Positions 1-10,291 of a stretch of DNA of 64,000 nucleotides are shown piece by piece. The notes beneath the pieces were generated by a model. The model searched no databases. It was not told the DNA's origin and saw only the letters and a list, made by a program, of their open reading frames with translations. Position 1 is the first letter of the stretch. Each line of letters starts with the position of its first letter. The DNA is taken from contig JAXHVD010000022.1 of NCBI GenBank assembly GCA_034189385.1, forward strand, positions 1 through 64,000, written 5' to 3'. The position numbers and the translations under genes are program-made. This stretch comes from Thermodesulfobacteriota bacterium. Its GTDB lineage: Bacteria > Desulfobacterota > Desulfobacteria > Desulfobacterales > C00003060.

Positions 1-823
1 TCCTCTTTGACCACCTGCCCACTGCCGCCAATGAGGACGAATTCAAATCCTTGCTGCCTCAGTATCTTGATCGCGGCCAGTATCTCCATGCCCCGCTAGG
101 AGCAGTTCACTAGACGCTTACTTATATATCAAAAAAATATAGCCCCTGGTAGTGGCTGTGTCAAGGGGAGGTGAAAGCAACACAGTTTCAGAAGTCCTAA
201 CACTTTTAGATTGAAGAGAAGGCCGTCGTCAAATCGATGGCCTTTTGCTGTTTTGAAAGGAGGTGAATAGAAATGGCTTACACGCCAGAACTCAGCGACA
301 GAGGAAGTGCGACAGTTGTGGCTGCAATCCCCATAAACACGGGCATTAGAGAGACGATGCCCATGCCAAATCTCCTGTCTCTCCACCTTGGCCAGGATTT
401 TATCAGCGCTTTCAGCTTTATTCCCCCAGTACAGAAGTTATCGGGACCTTTTTCTTTACCAACAAAGGATGACATTCGTGTCATGCCAATCGCTACCTCT
501 CTTACATAATGTAGTCCAATTATCGTACCGAGCTTAGCTCCGTCCGATAATTCACATTATATAATCGAGGCGATTGGCCCGCCACTCATGTCGACTGTTT
601 TTGTATCCCTTCCGGAGACATCACCGCCCACAACACACACCGTTCAAAAAAGGCATACCGTACCATTAACCAGGGGCAAATCGTCCATTATACGGGCTCT
701 CACGAAGCCGTATAGTAATTCATGTCATGTAGCAATTCATTTCCTTGCCATCACACCGCTTTCGACACCAGCACCTTTAAGAATCCCAACCCAAACCACT
801 CTTTACCAGGAAAGGAGGCCATT

Positions 824-1222
824 ATGTGGAACGAACCGACAAAGGGACGGCTGGACAGGATACCACGGCTCTATGAGACCGAACACATCCCCCTAAAGGA
901 CAAGCTTATCCACTTTCATTTCTTCATCGGAGGGTGTGATTGGTACATCTGCGAGTATGACGGCGAGGACCTGTTCTTTGGATTCGCCATTTTGAACAGG
1001 GATTTTCAAAACGGGGAGTGGGGCTATGTGAGCTTCAGCGAATTGAAAGCCATCAAGATACACGGCTGGCTGGAGATTGATTCTGAAACGGAAGATGTCT
1101 GGACCATCCGCCCAGCACGGGAGGTTGAAAAGATAAGGATAGCCCATGGATGGCTGGAGCAGAAAGAACCAACCCGTACCGAGACAAAGGCAGAGCCAAT
1201 GACAGTCAGTCCCATCCCTTAA
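824..1222 (+). CDS. DUF2958 family protein
   Basis: IPRLYETE...HFFIGGCDWYICEYDGEDLFFGF...EWGYVSFSEL signature; AAGGAGG SD before ATG 824 (ORF track start 722 is over-extended). Confidence 0.85.
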   Translation: MWNEPTKGRLDRIPRLYETEHIPLKDKLIHFHFFIGGCDWYICEYDGEDLFFGFAILNRDFQNGEWGYVSFSELKAIKIHGWLEIDSETEDVWTIRPAREVEKIRIAHGWLEQKEPTRTETKAEPMTVSPIP

Positions 1223-1307
1223 CCCACAACCAACTGTAAGTCCGTGAACAGAAGCCCTGGGGGCCACTATCCCTGGGGCTTTTTTGTTCTGGAAAGGAGG
1301 TGGACCT

Positions 1308-1499
1308 ATGACCAAGGAACAAGAGCGCCAGTACCAGGACCCAGAGCTGTTAAGGGAAATCCTGAAGAGAACCCTGAACGGTATGAAGTTCCGCTTGGAC
1401 TGCGGGCATCACATTACTTTTGGAGAGGTTCTTGGCAACGACATCACAATTATCAACGGCAAGGAGTTCAAGGTTATATGCTCCATGTGTGGACACTAA
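1308..1499 (+). CDS. Small hypothetical protein, probable Zn-binding (CGHH...CxxC)
   Basis: AAGGAGGTG SD at ~1294-1302, ATG 1308, 63 aa. Confidence 0.7.
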   Translation: MTKEQERQYQDPELLREILKRTLNGMKFRLDCGHHITFGEVLGNDITIINGKEFKVICSMCGH

Positions 1500-1552
1500 A
1501 GCTTGGCAAACAATACAACTGGCTGGTACAATAGGAAGGGAGGTGAAGATAG

Positions 1553-1720
1553 ATGGATGATTTCTTTGATGACTTGGACACTGAGGACTATGCTCTAATA
1601 GGTGGGCTCATAGGAATGTTTGAAGACGAGGCCCAAGAAGAAAGACGCAGACGGAAGAGATTGGAAGAAGAGATGTTGAATCCTGATGACAGTTTTCACG
1701 GCGAGGACGGCAACATTTAG
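1553..1720 (+). CDS. Small acidic hypothetical protein (55 aa), absent from the ORF track
   Basis: GGGAGGTG SD; MDDFFDDLDTEDYALIGGLIGMFEDEAQEERRRRKRLEEEMLNPDDSFHGEDGNI*. Confidence 0.7.
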   Translation: MDDFFDDLDTEDYALIGGLIGMFEDEAQEERRRRKRLEEEMLNPDDSFHGEDGNI

Positions 1721-1809
1721 GCAGATGGCACAGATTCTCCAGAAAGACCCAATCCGCACACCCCATATTCTTGGTGCCACCCACTACAATCTCACTTTTA
1801 GGGGGTAAG

Positions 1810-2142
1810 ATGGCAAAGATAATATCAATACTGACCGGAAAGGAGCTTGAATCAATGAAAGCACTGTATCTTGACAGTTTCGGAAGTCTCATAGGATTCA
1901 GATTCAGCGCTAGCCAAGGCTCTGCTGAAGTGTTGATGACATTTCCGGAATTACAGAGGCTCTTGGAAGAGCTGGGCGAGTATGAAAACTCCCAGGCACA
2001 ACCTAACCAACAAGTATTAGGGGCGATTAAAATCCTCAATGAATACCTTTTTGGCTTCCCGTTAGGGCTAGTAGCCAACGTGGTCATTGGGCAATCCCAT
2101 GTGAGGATTCAGCCTGACCCACCGATTGAAACGCCCGATTAG
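1810..2142 (+). CDS. Hypothetical protein
   Basis: GGGGGT SD-like before ATG 1810; co-directional with neighbours; no recognised motif. Confidence 0.55.
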   Translation: MAKIISILTGKELESMKALYLDSFGSLIGFRFSASQGSAEVLMTFPELQRLLEELGEYENSQAQPNQQVLGAIKILNEYLFGFPLGLVANVVIGQSHVRIQPDPPIETPD

Positions 2143-2429
2143 AAACGGAAGAGCGGCAACTAGTTCCCATAAGTCAAACCGGTTGCCCCCCATCCTCACA
2201 CACCCTCATGGTCCCTATGTTCGAGCACATCCGTCCCAACAGCGCTACCAACCTATTATAACCACTACGATTTTTCTTGAATTCCGTGCCCATATCTGCT
2301 AATTGAAATACAAAGAACTATGGCCAGCCCCCTATCGTTCACAGGACTGGTTGGACAGCACCGCTACTAGAAATAACCATCACGCATATTTCTTGTTCGT
2401 TTATCTCCCGTGTCAAGACAGGAGGTCTT

Positions 2430-3053
2430 ATGTCATCAAAACTAAAAGAATGTCCAACTTGTGGAAAAGAGGTAGCAAAATCGGCCAAGATTTGCCCCCA
2501 CTGCGGAGAAAAGCTGAAAAAGAGATGGTTCCTCAAAGCACTGATTGCAATCGTTCTGTTGATAATCGCTGTTATCGTACTAGGCCCCTCCGAACAAGAA
2601 AAAGCTACAACCGTGAATTCACCATCTCAAGGCCAGCAAAAGGCTACCTTTCGTATTACGAATGTAAAAAAATATAGCACTGACCACTATAAATATAAAT
2701 CCAAATTGCCACTAGTTTCCATAGCAATCGAGAATACAGGTGCAACAGCAATCACATCCAAGGCACTTAAGTGCCTTGTATCTTTTATAGACCTTGACAA
2801 CAAAAGAATTATTACTCAATATCAACGCAATCTCTTGAATGATTTTAAAGAGATTGCTCCTGGATTTACTTCACCCTTGATTGGCATACAAATTCTTAAC
2901 GTAGAAGCCAAGCTTGTAAAACTCATTGGCCAACGGCCTATCAGCTTTAGGATAAGCGCAACCGTGAAATGTGAACTTAATCAACATGTACAAGAGAAGG
3001 CGGTCATCTTTTATCCTTCAGAATACACTTCGCTCCCAGTTTGGGACTGGTGA
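2430..3053 (+). CDS. Zinc-ribbon plus single-TM membrane protein of mobile elements
   Basis: N-terminal CPTCG...CPHCG, hydrophobic helix, exported C-domain; AGGAGG SD. Confidence 0.8.
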   Translation: MSSKLKECPTCGKEVAKSAKICPHCGEKLKKRWFLKALIAIVLLIIAVIVLGPSEQEKATTVNSPSQGQQKATFRITNVKKYSTDHYKYKSKLPLVSIAIENTGATAITSKALKCLVSFIDLDNKRIITQYQRNLLNDFKEIAPGFTSPLIGIQILNVEAKLVKLIGQRPISFRISATVKCELNQHVQEKAVIFYPSEYTSLPVWDW

Positions 3054-3120
3054 TAGCTGGCCACAAACGAGTAGTCAGAAGACTCCCTTATTACTTTCCC
3101 TACCACATCAGGAGCCACCC

Positions 3121-3723
3121 ATGTCAAAGTACCTTACAGCGAAAGAACTCATGGAACGCTGGAACGTCAAGCACTTCGAGCTTTTTCACGAATACATTAC
3201 AAAGGGTCTCCAGCCCTATGATGACATGGGCAATCCAAGAAGCCCAGCGGACGTATCACTTAGCATAGGGGCACATATAGCACCGCCTGTATGTAAGAAT
3301 TGGGAGGACGTGGAGCTTCCAGAGCCCACGGAACACGTTAGGGAGATTGTTGAAAGAACCGTGTACGGCTCACTGTTCAAGAAAAGCGACGTAGACGAAA
3401 TTGAAAAACAGGGTCGCACCGAGGCAGATACAAAGGAAAGGATTCCCGACCTGCCGCAAGGAAAGAAGAAACCACGCCTATCTGTTGGCAAGGATAGGAA
3501 ACCACGCCCATCTGCGATACATAGAATACGTGTAAGAGCGAAAGCGGAGGAACTTTGGCTTCTCAACCCTGAAGAAACAATTGCTGACATGGCCCACAGA
3601 GACGAACTACACGAGACCTATCTCCATGAAAGGAAGGAGTGCTACTCTGAGGAACAGGTTCAGCGCTGGATACGCGACCTCTGCCCTAATCCTAAACGAG
3701 GAAGACCCAAGAAGAAGACATAG
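3121..3723 (+). CDS. Putative DNA-binding regulator of the element
   Basis: AGGAG SD before ATG 3121; N-terminus YLTAKELMERWNV resembles AlpA/Xis HTH starts; C-terminal HTH-like segment and basic KRGRPKK tail. Confidence 0.6.
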   Translation: MSKYLTAKELMERWNVKHFELFHEYITKGLQPYDDMGNPRSPADVSLSIGAHIAPPVCKNWEDVELPEPTEHVREIVERTVYGSLFKKSDVDEIEKQGRTEADTKERIPDLPQGKKKPRLSVGKDRKPRPSAIHRIRVRAKAEELWLLNPEETIADMAHRDELHETYLHERKECYSEEQVQRWIRDLCPNPKRGRPKKKT

Positions 3724-3814
3724 TCAGATAAATACACCAGCGTTAGCCAGAATCCTCTTCCCAGATGGTTCAGCTCAGCCCATCTCACGTCCCATAAGTT
3801 TTTTCCGCCACAAC

Positions 3815-3940
3815 TAGAAAACCGTTTTCTACGCTAGATGAAAGTATTTTACTTTCCCATCTATAATCCCCACGACACACGGGTTTGTTGTTCCTGAACT
3901 CACCGAAAACACCTCTCTAAAACTAGAAAACCTTTTTCTA
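3815..3940. promoter_or_regulatory. Two copies of a 17-bp palindromic operator-like site TAGAAAACC(G/T)TTTTCTA
   Basis: Copies at 3815-3831 and 3924-3940, both preceded by AAC. Confidence 0.6.
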
Positions 3941-4102
3941 CAGCTTCATCCCGATGATAAGAGTAAAATGTTGTACTATAATGTCTATAGAAACGCTCAA
4001 TAACTGTCTCCGCCATGTTGATGGCCATAAAAAGTGATATCAGTTTCATACGCATCATCTTAACAGCGACCGTCCTCACGTCAATTAGACAAGTCGCTTA
4101 AT

Positions 4103-4225
4103 AGAAGAGGACACAAGACCACAACACAACCTGTGAAGCCCCTCCCAGTCGCTTTGAAGGGCTTCCAGGCAAATCCGACGGACAGATTGTTCCCGTTCGT
4201 CGGGGTGGTTTTGTGTCCTTTTTTT
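4103..4225 (+). ncRNA. Putative three-way-junction structured RNA/leader upstream of the polymerase-like gene
   Basis: 20-bp closing stem 4103-4122/4205-4224 enclosing hairpins 4130-4169 and 4174-4204; G-U pairs favour the + strand; ends in a U tract. Confidence 0.65.
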
Positions 4226-4234
4226 GTCGGGTAA

Positions 4235-5677
4235 ATGCAGGACAGGAAGATTTTAACGAAAGCGAGGAAGTTATGGCCTATGGAATACAAGGAATGGCTG
4301 GAAAGAGCAATCGGGCTCGATTTAAACCTTGGCATCTATAACGACTATGCCATGCGAATAGCAGATATGATTTACTCACAAATTCACCGCTCTAAATGGA
4401 GAGCTGACTATAAGCCAGCCTTCTCCCGCATCATAGCCAATCTAAGAGTGTCTTATGAATTAGGCATCCCGCTTCATTACAGCAGAGACACTAACAGGAA
4501 ATACCAAGAATTCAGCGGTTGGCGCCTTCGGAATCTCGTTGACGCCATGGACGAGGAAAATCTCATCGAACAACATAACGGCTACTATGACGAGGAATTC
4601 GGTGGCAAGGAAACTCGAATGTGGGCGAGCGAAGACCTTATCGGTCTGTTTTTGGCTATACAGCCAGAGGACGTCGTGTTGGACCCTCCAGACCCAGTCG
4701 TAGATCTAAAGGACAGACCGCCAAAGAAGAATGGAAAAAGGCAGAAGCCAAAGAGCGTACCCTATCGGAGAAGCGTTGAAACCGATGCTATGACAAAGGA
4801 GCTGAAACAATACGGCGAGATGATGCTACGTCATCGAGTGGAACTCCACATTTCCAGCGATGATGATTTGTCAGAGAAAGCCGAGGAGCAATTAGTAAAT
4901 CTAATAACTCTGTATCGATATTCCTATCTTAGTATCCTGTATCCTAAGGGATTTCCTAATGCTAGCTATTCAATACTAAACACTAACAACTCTAGTAATA
5001 ACAGAATTGCTACCATTACTTACGAAATAGGCCAGCCGATAGGTATTAGATTCAGATACTGTTGGCTTCATCGAAGTTTCAGCGAAAAATTCACGTTGGG
5101 CGGTAGATACTATGGGGCACCTTGGCAATTCATTGGTGGTGAACTCAGAGCCCACATAACCATAGATGGACAATCGACCGTAGAACCTGATTACTCGGGC
5201 TACCATCTGCGGATGCTCTATCACCTGGAAGGTATCGAGTGCGAGAAAGACCCCTATGGGTTCTGTGAGCCGAAATTGAGAACTCTGTATAAGGACGTTG
5301 CCTTGATAATGATAAATTGTGGAGCAAAGCGATACCTTACCAATAGCATCAAGAAGCGGTTCAGGGACAAGGGACGGGAAAATGAGTTTGGCAAAGAAAT
5401 CTTTGACAAGGGTTTCATTAAGAAGATGGTTGCTGAATGCGAGGCATTCCATGAACCAGTCAAGGGCTTTTTCTGTTCCGACGTGGGTATCAAACTTCAA
5501 TACATCGACAGCGAGATAACATCCTGCGTGTTGGACCATTTTATCAGTGGCGACATTCCAATCCTGCCAGTCCATGACAGTTTTGTCGTGGCAGAGGAAC
5601 ACGGGCAGGTTTTACGCACGGTTATGACGGAGGCGTATGAATACCATTTGGGATTTGAGCCAGTGATAACGGGTTAA
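4235..5677 (+). CDS. Stand-alone superfamily-A (Pol I/T7 RNAP-like) nucleic-acid polymerase
   Basis: GGRYY, motif A DYSGYHLR, motif B RTLYK, LQYIDSEI, motif C VHDSF; no exonuclease or helicase domain apparent. Confidence 0.75.
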   Translation: MQDRKILTKARKLWPMEYKEWLERAIGLDLNLGIYNDYAMRIADMIYSQIHRSKWRADYKPAFSRIIANLRVSYELGIPLHYSRDTNRKYQEFSGWRLRNLVDAMDEENLIEQHNGYYDEEFGGKETRMWASEDLIGLFLAIQPEDVVLDPPDPVVDLKDRPPKKNGKRQKPKSVPYRRSVETDAMTKELKQYGEMMLRHRVELHISSDDDLSEKAEEQLVNLITLYRYSYLSILYPKGFPNASYSILNTNNSSNNRIATITYEIGQPIGIRFRYCWLHRSFSEKFTLGGRYYGAPWQFIGGELRAHITIDGQSTVEPDYSGYHLRMLYHLEGIECEKDPYGFCEPKLRTLYKDVALIMINCGAKRYLTNSIKKRFRDKGRENEFGKEIFDKGFIKKMVAECEAFHEPVKGFFCSDVGIKLQYIDSEITSCVLDHFISGDIPILPVHDSFVVAEEHGQVLRTVMTEAYEYHLGFEPVITG

Positions 5678-5879
5678 TTCCCTGGCAACGAGAGAGCCGA
5701 CCTCTAAAACTCGGCAACTACCCCCGCCTCCTCGGGGGACAAGCTGTGAATCAGCCATCGATTTTTTGAGGGGGATTTTTCAAATGGCTGAAATAGGATT
5801 TCCGAACCAATGGCAAGAGTTGACGCCATTTACACACAATGCTATTCACGCAAGAAATGGGTGCGAGGGAGGAGTGTGT

Positions 5880-7028
5880 ATGAAGGGGTCTATAAGCTAT
5901 GAGAGGGACAGGAAGAGGTGGGTCGTAGTTTGGTATTACGAGGGCAAGGATTACAAGGTTCGCCGATACAAGGGCGAGTTCCTATGGCATAGAACCATCG
6001 CTGAAAAGTGTCTCGCTCTCATCCAGGGCAGATGGGAAGACCATCTCCAAGGCAAATGCCAGTTTCGCATAGAGGAGTTCACGGGAAAAGGTTGGACAGA
6101 CGTAATAGAGTTCTATGAAACCTGGCTGAAAGAAGTAGTTAAAGGCAGTACCAAACCAGCCACATACAAATGTTATCGGTCCTACTTGACAAACTGGATT
6201 CAACCCTTTTTTGAAAAGAATCCTGTGAGGCTCCATGAGATACAGTTGGACACCTTGGTAAAGCTCAAGAACAGCATCACGCTCCAGCCCAAAGGCAAAT
6301 TCAACGTCATGAATGCCTTTCACGCCATGATGGATTACGGATGGAGGTCAAAGAGGATTCCCGAAATGCCACCCTTTCCCAAGAAGAGTGAGTATGGTCT
6401 TAAAGACCCAGAGTGGTCATGGTACACAAGAGAACAAAGGGACATGGTGTTGAACGCCATCCCACAGGAGCACAAACCGATTTTTGACTTTCTGGTAAAG
6501 CATTACCGAAGACCAGGAGAGGCTTGTGCCATGTTTAAGACCGATTATGACGCCATAAACGACGCTTTCTGGATTAGACGGACAATCAGCGACAGGAAAT
6601 TGACTGAAACCACCAAGACAGGGAAAGCCCATTATACCCCTTGTGATAGCGATTTCACCGCCACCGCCCGACGGCTTCTTAACGAAAACCTGGACAGTCC
6701 TTTCCTTTTTGTCAATCCACGCAGCAGGAAGAAGAATGAAGGTGGGCGGTACACATTGGAGAGCTTGAACACTGTTTGGAAAAAGGCGTGCGACGAGGCG
6801 GGAGTTCCGAGGATCTCCCTATACCACGGAACCAAACACACCGCTTGTACGCTGTTTGTGGAAGAAGGCGGAGGCCCCGATGAGCTACAAATTCTGACGG
6901 ACCATGCCCGCCGAGAGTCAGTTGAACGGTATTATAAGATAACTCTTAATCGCAAAAGGCGGATAATGAATCGCAGTAAGGTGATATCACTCTATCCCAA
7001 AGCTATCCCAGGGCCATCAGAGGAGTAA
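5880..7028 (+). CDS. int: Tyrosine recombinase / phage-type integrase
   Basis: RRPGEA (R), KTG (K), YHGTKH (HxxK), LTDH...ERYY (H, Y); GGAGGAG SD before ATG 5880; adjacent to att site. Confidence 0.9.
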   Translation: MKGSISYERDRKRWVVVWYYEGKDYKVRRYKGEFLWHRTIAEKCLALIQGRWEDHLQGKCQFRIEEFTGKGWTDVIEFYETWLKEVVKGSTKPATYKCYRSYLTNWIQPFFEKNPVRLHEIQLDTLVKLKNSITLQPKGKFNVMNAFHAMMDYGWRSKRIPEMPPFPKKSEYGLKDPEWSWYTREQRDMVLNAIPQEHKPIFDFLVKHYRRPGEACAMFKTDYDAINDAFWIRRTISDRKLTETTKTGKAHYTPCDSDFTATARRLLNENLDSPFLFVNPRSRKKNEGGRYTLESLNTVWKKACDEAGVPRISLYHGTKHTACTLFVEEGGGPDELQILTDHARRESVERYYKITLNRKRRIMNRSKVISLYPKAIPGPSEE

Positions 7029-7069
7029 TAATCCTCATTTATTTCAACTGGTTGGCGGAAGGTGTTGAA

Positions 7070-7094
7070 GTTCGATTCCCATGCACTTCCGCCA
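7070..7094 (+). repeat. att site: 3' fragment of tRNA-Sec (T-loop, acceptor 3' strand, GCCA)
   Basis: GTTCGATTCCCATGCACTTCCGCCA has the CTTCCGCCA end typical of selC; no 5' half upstream. Confidence 0.8.
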
Positions 7095-7202
7095 CAATTT
7101 CCTTTTATATCAAGATGTTGAGACAGATCGGCCCTTTCGAAACACGTCCCAAAGGCGTTCGTCTCCCGCCATATTATTCTGTGCAGGCCCAATTCATGCG
7201 CT

Positions 7203-7871
7203 CTAGGACGATGTCCCAATGAGAGAGCGAAACGTTTCGATCGTAGCACGGTAGTCGGAGCTGCCGAAGATGGCAGAACCGGCTACAAAGACGTTCGCGC
7301 CTGCCTCGGACACCTGTTGAATCGTCCCCTGGTTTACCCCCCCATCGACGGCAATGAGGATCGGTAGGCTCTTGGCGTCGATCATCGATTTCAGGGCCCT
7401 TATCTTTTCAAGGGCCTGGGGGATGAACTTCTGTCCTCCAAAGCCCGGGTTGACGCTCATGACCAAGACCAGGTCCACATCCTCCAAGATCCATTCCAAG
7501 GTCGAAAGGGGCGTCGATGGATTCAGGGCCACCCCTGCCTTGGCGCCATGGTCTTTGATAGCCTGAATCGTCCTGTGGAGGTGATAGCAGGCCTCGGGAT
7601 GGACGGTCACATAACTGGAGCTGCCCCCTGCTTGGGCAAAGGCCTCCACATACTGGTCGGGGTTTTCGATCATCAGGTGCATGTCAAGGGGAAGGGCGGT
7701 CACCCTTCTCACCGCTTCTGCCACCAAGGGGCCGATGGTGATGTTGGGCACGAAATGGCCGTCCATGACGTCCACATGGATCCAATCGGCACCGGCCGCC
7801 TCTACGGCCTTGATCTCATCGCCAAGCTTTGCAAAGTCTGCAGACAATATGGATGGGGCAATAAGCTTCAT
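7203..7871 (-). CDS. rpe: Ribulose-phosphate 3-epimerase
   Basis: [37 protein letters not shown]. Confidence 0.98.
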
Positions 7872-7937
7872 GTTTCTCCTCCATGATGCGTAACAGCCGA
7901 TTCATTTCCTGCGGTTTCCACCAAGGGGACTTGGTGC

Positions 7938-8918
7938 CTAAAGAGGTGGCAGGCCAGGATCTTCAAAACGCCCTTCAGGAGGGCAACTCCATGCCAACTC
8001 TCCGTCTTGGTAGAAAAAAAGTGTTACCCCAGAGGTGCGGGGGGTCAGCATCCAGACCTCCTTCCCAGGGGGTTCAAAAGCGTCATATAGATCATAGAGC
8101 ATCCCAAAGGCGCTTATGCGAAGCCGAAGGTGTCTCTTCAGCCAGCCGCTGGATACACGATGATGAAAGACGTAGAGCCCCTTGTCAAGGATCGGCATCT
8201 GTTCTGACCTGTTTAGGGTCAAATTTACCAGGCTCCCAGAAGCAACAGGGTGTCCAGCCAAGGGCCTTTGACCTACCACCACATCTTTTGGCAGGTTGCT
8301 CTTCTGGACAGAGCGAATCTGGCCCAGGTTCAGTTGAGATCGCTCCAATATAAAGATGGCATCTTCCACGGTAAGACCATCCAAGTAGGGCATCTTAAAT
8401 CTCACCGGCCTTCGGCCAAGGCTGATCAACAAGTCTATAGGAGTGCCCCGCTTGACCTTTGTGCCGGGAGGCGGTGCTTGGCCCATGAGTTCGCCCCTCG
8501 TGGCCCGTTGGCTGTGTGTTTTGGAAACGACCCCTTCTGCAAGCCCATTCTCTTCCATGATGATATGGGCTTCACGTACGTCCATGCCCACCAGATTGGG
8601 TACAAGCACACTCTTGGGCCCTTTGGACAACACAATTCTTATGTCTCGGTCTTTCTTTACCTCGGCACCGGGTCTGGGGTCCTGATAGGCCACATGGTTC
8701 TTGGGAAGGTTGGCCCTATATTCGAAACCGCTTATCTTGATATTGAGTCCCAGGTCGGTGAGAATCTCCAGCGCATATACCACATCTTTGCCTCCAAGAT
8801 CGGGCACGACGACGACATCCTCACTCCTGATAATGAACCTCAGGGTGAGATAGCCAGTGGCTCCTGCAATGACGGCAAAAAGCCCAAAGAGTATCCCTAT
8901 CCTGAAAACAGCCCTCAC
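7938..8918 (-). CDS. PASTA domain-containing membrane protein
   Basis: N-terminal TM and three PASTA repeats (VPDLGG, VPNLVG, MPYLDG). Confidence 0.9.
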   Translation of the reverse strand: MRAVFRIGILFGLFAVIAGATGYLTLRFIIRSEDVVVVPDLGGKDVVYALEILTDLGLNIKISGFEYRANLPKNHVAYQDPRPGAEVKKDRDIRIVLSKGPKSVLVPNLVGMDVREAHIIMEENGLAEGVVSKTHSQRATRGELMGQAPPPGTKVKRGTPIDLLISLGRRPVRFKMPYLDGLTVEDAIFILERSQLNLGQIRSVQKSNLPKDVVVGQRPLAGHPVASGSLVNLTLNRSEQMPILDKGLYVFHHRVSSGWLKRHLRLRISAFGMLYDLYDAFEPPGKEVWMLTPRTSGVTLFFYQDGELAWSCPPEGRFEDPGLPPL

Positions 8919-10291
8919 GGCCCAATCCTCTCTAGGCGAACGGCAAAGAACCCGTCCATGTTGTGTTGGTGCGGCACTGTTCTGAAGATGCCTGACCTAT
9001 CAACGACGTGCTCATTCATGTCAGGAAGCGTGCAAGGTGAACGACTTATAGCAAAATCACGGTGATTTTTCAAAAAGGCGTCTACCACGCTATCGCCTTC
9101 TTCTGGCTCAAGACTGCACACGCAGTAGACCAGCCATCCTCCTCTTCTTACCAGGGGCGCTAGGGCGGCCAACAAGCGGGACTGTTGGCGTTGAAGTCTC
9201 AACAGGTCTTCTTCCCTTTTTTTCCATTTTATATCTGGGTTTCTTCGAACCACTCCCAGACCCGAACAGGGGGCATCCAGCAAGATCCGGTCAAACGTGG
9301 CGGCAAGGTTGTTGGGCACCGGCAACGACAGGTCGTGGCGCCAAGTGGTCACCATAGAGATGCCAAGCCGTTTCATGGCTGTCCTCAGAGAGCCCAGTTT
9401 CCAGGCCTCTCGATCCATGGCCTGCAAGACGCCTGAATTCTTCATGAGTTGGGCCATGTGCCCTGTTTTACCTCCGAGGCCCGCGCAAGCGTCCAAGGTG
9501 GTCTCGCCCCCCTTGGGGTCGAGGAAATAGGTGATGAGTTGTGCGGCTTCATCTTGGACCTGAAACCAGCCCTTTTGAAAGGGCGACATCTCGTCGACGG
9601 GCTGTTTCAGACCCGTGAGGGCAAGGCCTTCGGGGGCAAATCTTGTTTCCCTTATCTTCCTAACATGGGCGATGAGAGACCGATGCAGTTTTTTTCGAGA
9701 AACCTTCAAGGTGTTTGCCCGAATGGTCACAGGAGGGATTTGATTGTTTGTCTTGCAGAGCCGTTTTGTCTCTTCCACGCCCAGGTGCCTGACCCACCGC
9801 TTGACCATCCAAAAAGGGTGCGATTCTCCTATGGCGATGGCGGCCACCGGATCATCCCGTTCATCGGGCAAGGGCACGTCCTGCGCCTTCCTCACGGCTG
9901 CTCGCAGCACTGCATTGACAAATCGAACGGTCCAGAGAGGGGCCTTGCCTTTGGCCAGTTCGACAGAATCGTTGACAGCCGCAAACACGGGAATGCGTGA
10001 AAGAAAGAGTATCTGATAGAGACCTAACCGGATAATGTTCAGGACCGGCGGATCGATTTTGTCAATAGGGGTGTTTGACAGGTCTTTAATCACCCAGTCG
10101 AGGCGGGCCTGCCATCGGAGGACCCCGAAGACCAGGTTGTTGGCCAAGGCACGGTCGGTTTGAGCCAGTCGGGGCCTCTTTTCGAAGGCTTGGGTGAGGA
10201 GGCTGTCCAAGGTAATGTGAGGGTCGTCAAGAGCATTCAAGACGCAAAGGGCTATCTGTCGCGCGATGGCGGCCATGACCTGGCTATCCAA
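8915..10291 (-). CDS. rsmB: 16S rRNA m5C967 methyltransferase
   Basis: NusB-like N-domain, QDEAAQ, DACAGLGGKT, DAPCSGLG; follows fmt. Confidence 0.95.
   Translation of the reverse strand: MDSQVMAAIARQIALCVLNALDDPHITLDSLLTQAFEKRPRLAQTDRALANNLVFGVLRWQARLDWVIKDLSNTPIDKIDPPVLNIIRLGLYQILFLSRIPVFAAVNDSVELAKGKAPLWTVRFVNAVLRAAVRKAQDVPLPDERDDPVAAIAIGESHPFWMVKRWVRHLGVEETKRLCKTNNQIPPVTIRANTLKVSRKKLHRSLIAHVRKIRETRFAPEGLALTGLKQPVDEMSPFQKGWFQVQDEAAQLITYFLDPKGGETTLDACAGLGGKTGHMAQLMKNSGVLQAMDREAWKLGSLRTAMKRLGISMVTTWRHDLSLPVPNNLAATFDRILLDAPCSGLGVVRRNPDIKWKKREEDLLRLQRQQSRLLAALAPLVRRGGWLVYCVCSLEPEEGDSVVDAFLKNHRDFAISRSPCTLPDMNEHVVDRSGIFRTVPHQHNMDGFFAVRLERIGP

Follow-up and report, generated by a model that had tools for sequence, protein, structure and literature searches.

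A winged-helix protein with a predicted minimal family-A polymerase fold on an integrative island at tRNA-Sec

The integrative island and its polymerase gene

The first 64,000 nucleotides of contig JAXHVD010000022.1, from a Thermodesulfobacteriota bacterium of the Desulfobacterales (GenBank assembly GCA_034189385.1), were analyzed as a single stretch, which we call the window. The window opens on part of an integrative island, and this island carries, immediately ahead of its tyrosine integrase gene, a + strand open reading frame (ORF) at 4235-5677 whose product of 480 amino acids (aa) is the subject of this report. Modeling predicts that the product consists of a winged helix fused to a minimal family-A polymerase core without a nuclease domain, and we refer to it below as the polymerase (Table 1). 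The ORF list with its translations confirmed both the ORF and its five motifs, GGRYY, DYSGYHLR, RTLYK, LQYIDSEI, and VHDSF, in the order in which an earlier reading of the bare letters (the sequence-only reading) had given them. The true start of the gene is likelier to be M16 (nucleotide 4280), giving a protein of 465 aa, because GAGG lies 12 nucleotides (nt) upstream of this codon, residues 1-16 have a predicted local distance difference test score (pLDDT) below 50 in the structural model, and the ESM Atlas entry begins at residue 16.

The element is an integrase-mediated genomic island inserted in the 3' end of tRNA-Sec. Its attR matches positions 4006-4048 of a second contig, C31, at 40 of 43 positions, and the C31 copy overlaps the end of an intact tRNA-Sec; no tRNA was called in the window beside the integrase, where the att fragment is partial. 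The G+C content is 39-50% over window positions 1-7000 and 52-58% in the host DNA after 7100, while on C31 it is 40-49% in the 4 kb beyond the tRNA and 51-58% on the opposite side. Among eight loci from relatives, three have tRNA-Sec beside an rpe homolog (the two adjoin in L084 and are separated by about 200 nt in L083 and by about 420 nt in L090). This tRNA-Sec/rpe pair is the empty site, and rpe flanks the island here. The att repeats at tRNA-Sec and the empty site in relatives bear out the integrative element that the sequence-only reading had proposed, and the integrase which it had placed directly downstream of the polymerase was confirmed by PF00589 (E = 1e-13, 51.8 bits against a cut-off of 27.1; E = 8e-14 from 5880) and by phrog_1 (E = 1.6e-31). 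No ORF of at least 40 aa lies between the two genes, and all recognised island genes are co-directional. The polymerase gene was found in one of 37 genomes of the genus.

Because 4,005 nt of the island lie on C31 and 7,069 nt in the window, it measures at least 11.1 kb. The window begins at contig base 1, so that the island is truncated on the left; the contig ends of C31 and the window do not overlap, and the gap between them was not closed. In the probable source run, X1, window positions 1-300 have an approximately ten-fold depth (422 against about 40 on the rest of the island) and loose ends at 36, 85, and 121, so a multi-copy repeat probably broke the assembly. An independent second marine-sediment study yielded contigs that match portions of the island, among them the leader and most of the polymerase gene, at 97-99% identity. 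No joint bridging the att sites was found in the contigs mapped on the window, and none of the five sequencing runs listed for these sequences is of RNA.

Table 1. Coordinates of the island features; positions refer to the window unless contig C31 is named
Feature	Position	Strand	Basis or remark
Left island part, cut by contig end	1-3723	+	Co-directional small ORFs; G+C 39-50%
DUF2958-like ORF	722-1222	+	Pfam E 0.0018, below the Pfam cut-off
Zinc-ribbon protein	2430-3053	+	Pfam
250-aa ORF directly upstream of the regulatory region	2971-3723	+	No family match, also from the internal Met at 3121
Palindrome copy 1, AACTAGAAAACCGTTTTCTAC, candidate protein-binding site	3812-3832 (17-bp TAGAAAACNGTTTTCTA at 3815-3831)		Repeat and motif search
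Sigma-70-like promoter match just downstream of palindrome 1	3838-3867	+	10/12 consensus positions, consensus match only
Palindrome copy 2, AACTAGAAAACCTTTTTCTAC	3921-3941 (17-bp TAGAAAACNGTTTTCTA at 3924-3940)		109 nt from copy 1
Sigma-70-like promoter match just downstream of palindrome 2	3954-3982	+	10/12 consensus positions, consensus match only
Structured leader	4096-4232	+	Long outer stem (core arms 4105-4122, 4205-4222) around two hairpins, running into T7 tract 4219-4225
Predicted winged-helix and minimal family-A polymerase gene	4235-5677 (probable start 4280)	+	ORF, alignments, AlphaFold2 model
N-terminal winged-helix domain (predicted)	4337-4678, residues ~35-148	+	VIA-align of the model
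Polymerase core (predicted)	4682-5674, residues ~150-480	+	Thumb, hairpin, palm, and fingers motifs in alignments and model
AT-rich stretch coding for linker, residues 240-265	4952-5029	+	G+C scan, model, alignments
Tyrosine integrase, next + strand ORF after the polymerase	5766-7028 (likely start 5880)	+	PF00589, phrog_1
attR	7070-7112	+	43-nt direct repeat: last 25 nt of tRNA-Sec plus 18 nt
HTH_3 repressor-like protein, 173 aa	Contig C31 99-620	-	ORF and family match
MCM-like AAA+ helicase, 661 aa, with N-terminal Cys4 zinc ribbon and C-terminal winged helix	Contig C31 1385-3370	-	Predicted structure
Intact tRNA-Sec	Contig C31 4024-4121	-	tRNA call

Structure, active site, and family of the polymerase

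An AlphaFold2 model of the polymerase, computed from the family alignment, had a pLDDT of 87.9 and a predicted template modeling score of 0.86. In a Foldseek search of the PDB, all 46 matches shown were family-A polymerases, 18 matches had E ≤ 1e-3, and the best E was 2e-4; human mitochondrial RNA polymerase (RNAP) stood at the top, and apicoplast Pol, Taq, Klenow, and Bst were among the others. VIA-align, a structure search independent of Foldseek, placed only family-A DNA or RNA polymerases at ranks 1-17 (Z 13.7-7.3), with model residues ~150-480 covered. The DNA polymerases included the apicoplast enzyme apPol (Z 13.7, root-mean-square deviation [rmsd] 4.0, 251 aligned), Aquifex Pol I (12.9), Pol nu (12.1), Klenow (11.9), and T7 DNA polymerase (11.3), and the RNA polymerases included yeast mitochondrial RNAP (Z 11.7, 346 residues aligned from residue 37), T7 RNAP (10.7), and the N4 mini-virion RNAP (8.6). 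The sequence-only reading had taken the motifs of this protein for superfamily-A palm motifs and had named searches with an AlphaFold model as the way to check them; both searches agree with it. For the N-terminal domain, the winged-helix matches were to eS19, MarR-type, and ORC structures (Z 6-7.3, rmsd 2.6-3.8 Å over 76-99 residues).

In the model, the core is laid out as thumb helices at residues 181-198 and 214-227, a beta-hairpin at 279-293 that holds R291, motif A with D319, fingers with D339 and R349xxxK353, and motif C formed by H447-D448-S449. D319 follows a strand and D448 sits in the turn of a beta-hairpin, like the palm motifs A and C. Conservation was read from two family alignments, one of 46 sequences and one of 144 representatives that are at most 50% identical to each other. 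Both alignments show R291 (in GGRxY), R305, E317, D319, and K353 without variation. D448 and S449 do not vary among the 46 sequences and reach at least 90% conservation among the 144; for H324, D339, R349, N361, and H447, conservation in the larger alignment is likewise at least 90%.

Alignment by hhalign with the PolA polymerase domain of the organism itself and its relatives brought these motifs into register, with GGRFY on TGRLS, WQxxP on LQNIP, the invariant Arg on the Arg of IRxAF, DYSxxHxR on DYSQIELR, and RxxxK...IN on RRQAK...IY. The Pol I-like character that had been claimed for motif A is thus seen against the DYSQIELR of the organism's own PolA, and the motif-B YG that had been reported missing is indeed absent, N361 lying at the position of the PolA Tyr. 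Motif C is HDS in the polymerase family and HDE in the host PolA. In Klenow numbering we take R291 to be R668, D319 to be D705, H324 to be E710, R349 to be R754, K353 to be K758, N361 to be Y766, D448 to be D882, and S449 to be E883. Judged from these alignments, the polymerase appears to retain the metal ligands and the template and primer contacts of family-A enzymes, as expected of an active enzyme.

Within the gene, the G+C content drops to 28-37% across positions ~4850-5030, which confirms the AT-rich patch of the sequence-only reading. The patch encodes residues ~222-266, and the linker at 240-265 is of low confidence in the model and a hypervariable insertion region of the polymerase family. 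An internal origin in the patch was considered and rejected, since the patch holds no repeats and is this variable linker.

Searches of family collections returned little for the ORF. Pfam and NCBIfam gave zero families at E ≤ 0.1, in keeping with the earlier claim that it has no exonuclease, helicase, or TOPRIM domain, and PADLOC gave zero matches for the protein; its sole PHROGs match was phrog_4756 (E = 8e-57), a family of unknown function. A profile word-index search returned 50 of 52 already known proteins, none with an informative name. The family itself is very large. A profile of the 46 sequences matched 12,193 cluster representatives (50% identity) at E ≤ 1e-3, including 6,120 at E ≤ 1e-30, and the members are mostly 420-620 aa long and matched over almost their whole length. 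Pfam recognised no domain in 24 of 25 diverse members and an N-terminally fused MerR in one (protein P0002).

Gene neighborhoods were examined at 53 loci from species-representative genomes, mostly metagenome-assembled genomes of Desulfobacterales, 50 of which yielded a called polymerase ORF; three ORFs on each side were compared with Pfam. Sixteen of these 50 loci have a recombinase of the tyrosine or serine type among the three ORFs on either side (L002, L003, L004 [serine], L005, L020, L021, L028, L029, L030, L032, L035, L037, L038, L044, L047, and L052, L029 being near-identical to L030); the proportion is 7 of 12 for the loci whose match starts by query residue 42. The usual order is the polymerase, often an HTH_17 excisionase-like gene (L002, L003, L005, and L032), and then the integrase; L022 has an HTH_17 gene as well, and its contig ends with no integrase recognised up to that point. 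In the closest retrievable relative, from a metagenome and 75% identical, a tyrosine integrase immediately follows the polymerase. Close metagenome relatives with upstream DNA came to a single locus, which lacks the 5' half. A small MerR gene stands just upstream of the polymerase in nine loci (L009, L010, L012-L015, L018, L021, and L024), and this gene, like the MerR fusion, hints at a dedicated regulator or DNA-binding partner. At the Pfam level, no nuclease recurs among the neighbors, and no SSB (single-stranded DNA-binding protein), D5-type helicase, or DnaB-type helicase family was found among them. Families typical of the leading regions of plasmids and of integrative and conjugative elements also occur near members (DUF2958 in the window, ArdC-N in L013 and L024, and DUF932 in L003), with matches that are weak or partial.

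The family extends to phages, with 106-112 matching phage records, mostly from lytic phages of Vibrio, Aeromonas, and Pseudoalteromonas, including ORF100 of ICP1 (HQ641347 53113-54780). The phage matches listed are hypothetical or unannotated proteins, except for a "DNA polymerase" of Pseudomonas phage vB_PsaM_M1, and the best structural matches in BFVD are the family's own phage proteins (E = 1e-23 to 1e-17). The lytic phages that carry the family have genomes of 110-145 kb, in some of which it occurs in two or three places; another example is MF370964 7049-8320. One phage member adjoins a MobE homing endonuclease. A search of plasmids gave three weak matches, hypothetical or unannotated.

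Flanking sequences, helicase, and proposed role

The region between the left part of the island and the polymerase gene holds the pair of operator-like palindromes and the structured leader that the sequence-only reading had described, and both are present as sequence features. TAGAAAACNGTTTTCTA occurs twice in the window against 0.02 expected matches, and 1 of 100 shuffles gave two. The motif is absent from the other 93 fetched loci and from the opposite island end (L078), and no repeated palindromes were found upstream of the polymerase gene in the other relatives; the palindrome pair is specific to the island studied here. The leader (positions 4090-4237) has a folding energy of -64.9 kcal/mol (z about -6.2), which none of 200 shuffles equalled, and two G.T wobbles favor the + strand for the structure. 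From its sequence it looks like a terminator or attenuator, and it may act as an attenuator, as a terminator of the upstream genes, or as a DNA signal. Rfam gave zero matches over window positions 1-9000.

Long terminator-like hairpins also stand just upstream of the polymerase gene in L007 (z -5.0), L029 and L030 (z -8.9), L028, L035, and L047, while the remaining close relatives examined are without one. A CACAAG...CTTGTG stem with a following T-run is common to the hairpins of L007 (819-907), L029 (7381-7443), and L030, which is the same as L029. The exact CACAAG/CTTGTG pair occurs four times in 629 kb of loci. Three of these occurrences are no more than 400 nt upstream of the gene, where 0.13 would be expected; they come from two independent loci only, and the window copy (4103-4229) is imperfect. 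Alignment of the leader hairpins revealed nothing in common beyond the 6-mer. For the module of operator, structured RNA, polymerase, and integrase that had been proposed, the features are all present in the island, and a tyrosine or serine recombinase is found within three ORFs of the polymerase in 16 of 50 loci, but the palindrome is not found in relatives and the upstream RNA structure is found in only a few close ones.

Farther to the left, strings like GGAAAGGAGGTG lie at 254-267, 1291-1304, 1534-1547, and 1837-1850, ahead of small + strand ORFs, and are most simply strong ribosome-binding sites. The N-terminal part of the ORF at 2971-3723 is putatively like an excisionase or a MerR-type helix-turn-helix protein, as judged by eye.

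The opposite end of the island, on C31, encodes a predicted MCM-like helicase. Its model has a pLDDT of 82.6, and ranks 1-11 of the structure search were all MCMs, with Z from 22.4 (MCM5) to 18.6 over residues ~230-545; further matches were to SCCmec Cch (Z 11.8) and SaPIbov1 Rep (Z 10.0). Nearly all homologs of the 661-aa protein carry PF27228. Fusions to DnaG-type primase domains (zf-CHC2, Toprim) are seen in many of them, at lengths of 850-1,060 aa, and in one case the fusion partners are Prim-Pol and PriCT_1; no primase domain is present in the 661-aa helicase itself. As predicted from the models, the island thus encodes a helicase of a type that is fused to a primase elsewhere, plus a separate polymerase-fold protein. 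A radical-SAM domain (PF04055) was seen in two helicase homologs, and the helicase family was found in one of 36 other genomes of the genus (G040, contig C484 4133-5623), in an 896-aa open frame that is possibly primase-fused. Complex prediction for polymerase residues 16-480 with helicase residues 139-661 gave a score below the mark.

The fold of the polymerase, its conserved catalytic residues, the site of integration, and the linkage of the family to mobile elements are observed. We consider it fairly probable that the polymerase is the initiator, or primase-polymerase, of the island's own replication after excision, with the MCM-like helicase in the replication module. In this reading, the enzyme would be brought to a specific site by its winged helix, the upstream palindromes or the leader hairpin being candidates for that site. 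De novo initiation and extension of a strand would fall to the palm, and replication would then be continued by the MCM-like helicase encoded at the opposite island end or by the host replisome. The priming activity, the choice of nucleotide, the DNA site bound, and the partnership with the helicase are what we infer as most likely. Precedent supports an initiator role. TV-Pols, a class of small family-A polymerases compared below, are predicted primase-polymerases (PMC2579912), and CcPol of SCCmec with its partner MP is a proven primase that uses deoxynucleoside triphosphates (dNTPs) and is encoded with a helicase and recombinases (PMC7581432; 10.1101/2022.12.02.518924).

Several results weigh against the initiator role or the family assignment beneath it. 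Sequence methods alone do not support kinship with family-A polymerases: Pfam DNA_pol_A did not match the ORF at E ≤ 0.1, phmmer and hmmsearch with the family profiles retrieved zero polymerases from the PDB sequences (the best profile match, S19e, was nonsignificant at E = 1.5), and the hhalign alignments to PolA had probabilities of only 3.5% and 1.7%. The family profiles likewise retrieved nothing in Microcystis phage LMM01. We took ORF30 of that phage to be its TV-Pol, a guess made since it abuts IS605-type transposases; it reached an E of 0.015 in hhalign and -2.3 bits in hmmsearch, and its likeness to the family is at the level of motifs only, e.g., YDVVKCH and VKTAVLAVINGA, and not significant. 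Three positions of sugar choice or catalysis are unlike Pol I, namely H324, N361, and S449 in place of what we take to be E710, Y766, and E883 of Klenow, so that dNTP use is not assured. Since the gap between their two contigs is unclosed, the helicase and the polymerase could stem from two tandemly inserted elements, and a helicase homolog was found within 8 kb of the polymerase gene in none of 54 related loci. CcPol requires MP, its SSB partner, for priming, and no SSB-like gene was recognised near the polymerase at the Pfam level, MP itself having been revealed by structure prediction. Finally, because lytic phages such as ICP1 carry members, the role of the family is not tied to integrative islands.

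Other roles would make use of the same fold. It is unlikely that the polymerase is a primase-polymerase acting at entry, where island DNA taken up in single-stranded form through conjugative mobilisation or transformation would be turned by it into a duplex usable by the integrase. An entry role was previously proposed for PolA-SSB primases (10.1101/2022.12.02.518924), and the long + strand hairpin could function in single-stranded DNA. The leading-region-type genes near members (DUF2958-like, E = 0.0018; ArdC-N in L013 and L024; DUF932 in L003) point the same way, but such markers are weak and scarce. Neither the window nor the 4 kb from the opposite island end showed a relaxase, an oriT, or a coupling protein, and an MCM-like helicase suits duplex replication better.

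That the protein is a miniature single-subunit RNA polymerase appears rather unlikely. Its winged helix would read an element-specific promoter, in the palindromes or the hairpin, and the enzyme would transcribe island genes or make RNA primers. RNA polymerases fit the model about as well as DNA polymerases do (yeast mitochondrial RNAP Z 11.7, T7 RNAP 10.7, N4 mini-virion RNAP 8.6), and the top Foldseek match is human mitochondrial RNAP. Motif C resembles T7 RNAP in its HDS, against the HDE of the host PolA, a conserved His occupies the position of the Pol I steric-gate Glu, and one neighboring ESM Atlas cluster was auto-named "DNA-directed RNA polymerase family protein." T7-type RNAPs, however, have a conserved motif-B Tyr (Y639), which Asn replaces here, and no Pfam family, thus no RNA polymerase family, matched at E ≤ 0.1. 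The context, moreover, is that of a replication and integration module with an MCM-like helicase and not of transcription, and CcPol, the sole tested relative in the class, prefers dNTPs (PMC7581432).

We regard a role in defense or conflict as very unlikely; in it, the DNA or RNA synthesized by the polymerase upon phage attack would abort or signal the infection, and the island would be only a carrier. Defense has been raised as a possibility for the A-family primases of mobile genetic elements (10.1101/2022.12.02.518924). Restriction-modification, Mrr, AbiE, and SLFN-type genes lie near several members, but defense genes are common cargo of any island, and the recurrent neighbors are recombinases and small HTH or MerR genes with no fixed effector. 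The presence of the family in lytic phages, sometimes in two or three places per genome, speaks for such a system, and the lack of a PADLOC match against it. A catalytically dead polymerase fold that serves as a DNA-binding regulator or recombination accessory factor could draw on the fused winged helix, the adjacent palindromes, and the vestigial RRM core of some PolA-SSB members (10.1101/2022.12.02.518924), but is hardly credible with both metal Asp residues, the hairpin Arg, and RxxxK invariant or nearly so across the 144 representatives.

Beyond the reading of the polymerase as initiator of the island's own replication stands a bolder one, doubtful at present, in which it would by itself initiate synthesis de novo at specific sites, with no SSB partner and possibly with ribonucleoside triphosphates (NTPs), and no smaller family-A enzyme of this type would be known. 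No such partner would be needed because the fused winged helix would itself read structured DNA, either the long + strand hairpin with the CACAAG/CTTGTG stem found again ahead of the gene in close relatives or the palindrome pair, and NTP use is conceivable because of the His, Asn, and Ser at the sugar-selecting positions. N4 virion RNAP acts on hairpin promoters, and an NTP-using polymerase would loosely resemble it as a half-size RNA polymerase or primase directed by a hairpin or operator. If the self-sufficient initiator were true, the more than 12,000 clusters, including those of ICP1-type lytic phages, would form a large class of initiating polymerases.

To our knowledge, the only proven primase type beyond DnaG and the archaeo-eukaryotic primases (AEP) is the family-A pair CcPol-MP. 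The family described here has 12,193 clusters at 50% identity without a Pfam or NCBIfam model, and occurs in bacteria, integrative islands, and lytic phages. With a DNA-binding domain fused to a minimal core, it offers a compact single-chain test of how a primer-dependent fold gains chain initiation, and the same single-chain system bears on what decides between DNA and RNA synthesis in the family-A fold. Annotators of genomes can take the family as a marker of replicative integrative islands, such as the one at tRNA-Sec with its MCM-like helicase.

Comparison with known systems

Iyer, Abhiman & Aravind (2008, PMC2579912) described TV-Pols from viruses and mobile elements as proteins of 400-600 aa with a minimal family-A core, never linked to a nuclease in that account. 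Besides a thumb, the published core comprises a beta-hairpin whose Arg is absolutely conserved, two Asp residues, and fingers bearing an Asp as well as RxxxK; a subset has an extra N-terminal domain and lies beside resolvases, lambda-type integrases, or transposases (PMC2579912). Set against this description, the polymerase has the two-helix thumb, the R291 hairpin, D319 and D448, D339, and R349xxxK353; it is likewise without a fused or linked nuclease, has an extra N-terminal domain, and lies in an integrase-bearing island. It differs in that the published N-terminal domain is all-helical whereas the one here is a winged helix with strands, and in that the D5-type helicase of the TV-Pol context was not seen here, the island having an MCM-like helicase instead. 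A replication protein of the Zamilon virophage was matched by fold only (E = 9.9e-4, rank 31). The polymerase belongs to or sits beside the TV-Pol class, with all described hallmarks present and a sequence link that is not significant.

CcPol-MP is the sole biochemically proven case of family-A primase logic on a mobile element. CcPol and its small OB-fold partner MP prime with dNTPs, while CcPol alone only extends primers (PMC7581432), and CcPol is encoded with the helicase Cch2 and serine recombinases (PMC7581432; 10.1101/2022.12.02.518924). The authors of the 2020 study stated that they knew of no other characterised TV-Pol (PMC7581432), and no later test of another one came up in the literature that we searched. 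As described there, CcPol keeps parts of the exonuclease region and the sugar-discriminating residues of Pol I, which the polymerase here does not. Where CcPol needs its OB-fold partner, the polymerase has a fused winged helix; and whereas the CcPol helicase is in the same operon, large serine recombinases follow, and the host is a Firmicute, here the helicase is at the other end of the island on another contig, the integrase is a tyrosine recombinase, and the host is not a Firmicute. In the PolA-SSB family, some members keep only a vestigial RRM core (10.1101/2022.12.02.518924).

The polymerase has the same palm-fingers-thumb fold (Z 10.7-13.7) and the same motif order as Pol I (Klenow and Taq) and T7-type RNAPs, but is about half their size, has no exonuclease or promoter-binding domains, and is missed by the Pfam models. 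It differs from Pol I in the His, Asn, and Ser that stand at the positions we take to be Klenow E710, Y766, and E883, and from the T7-type RNAPs in having no Pfam RNA polymerase match and in N361, which aligns with the PolA Tyr at what we take to be the motif-B Tyr position. ColE2 Rep and pRN1 ORF904, from the origin-specific primases and prim-pols of plasmids, are single proteins that recognise an origin and make the first primer; their catalytic fold is of the AEP type and unrelated, so that the likeness is one of analogy only.

The sequence-only reading had seen in this locus the best candidate for an uncharacterised new system, which the comparison does not bear out, TV-Pols having been described in 2008 (PMC2579912) and CcPol proven to be a primase subunit (PMC7581432). 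The polymerase is an additional member of a computationally defined and almost untested class, and not a new system.

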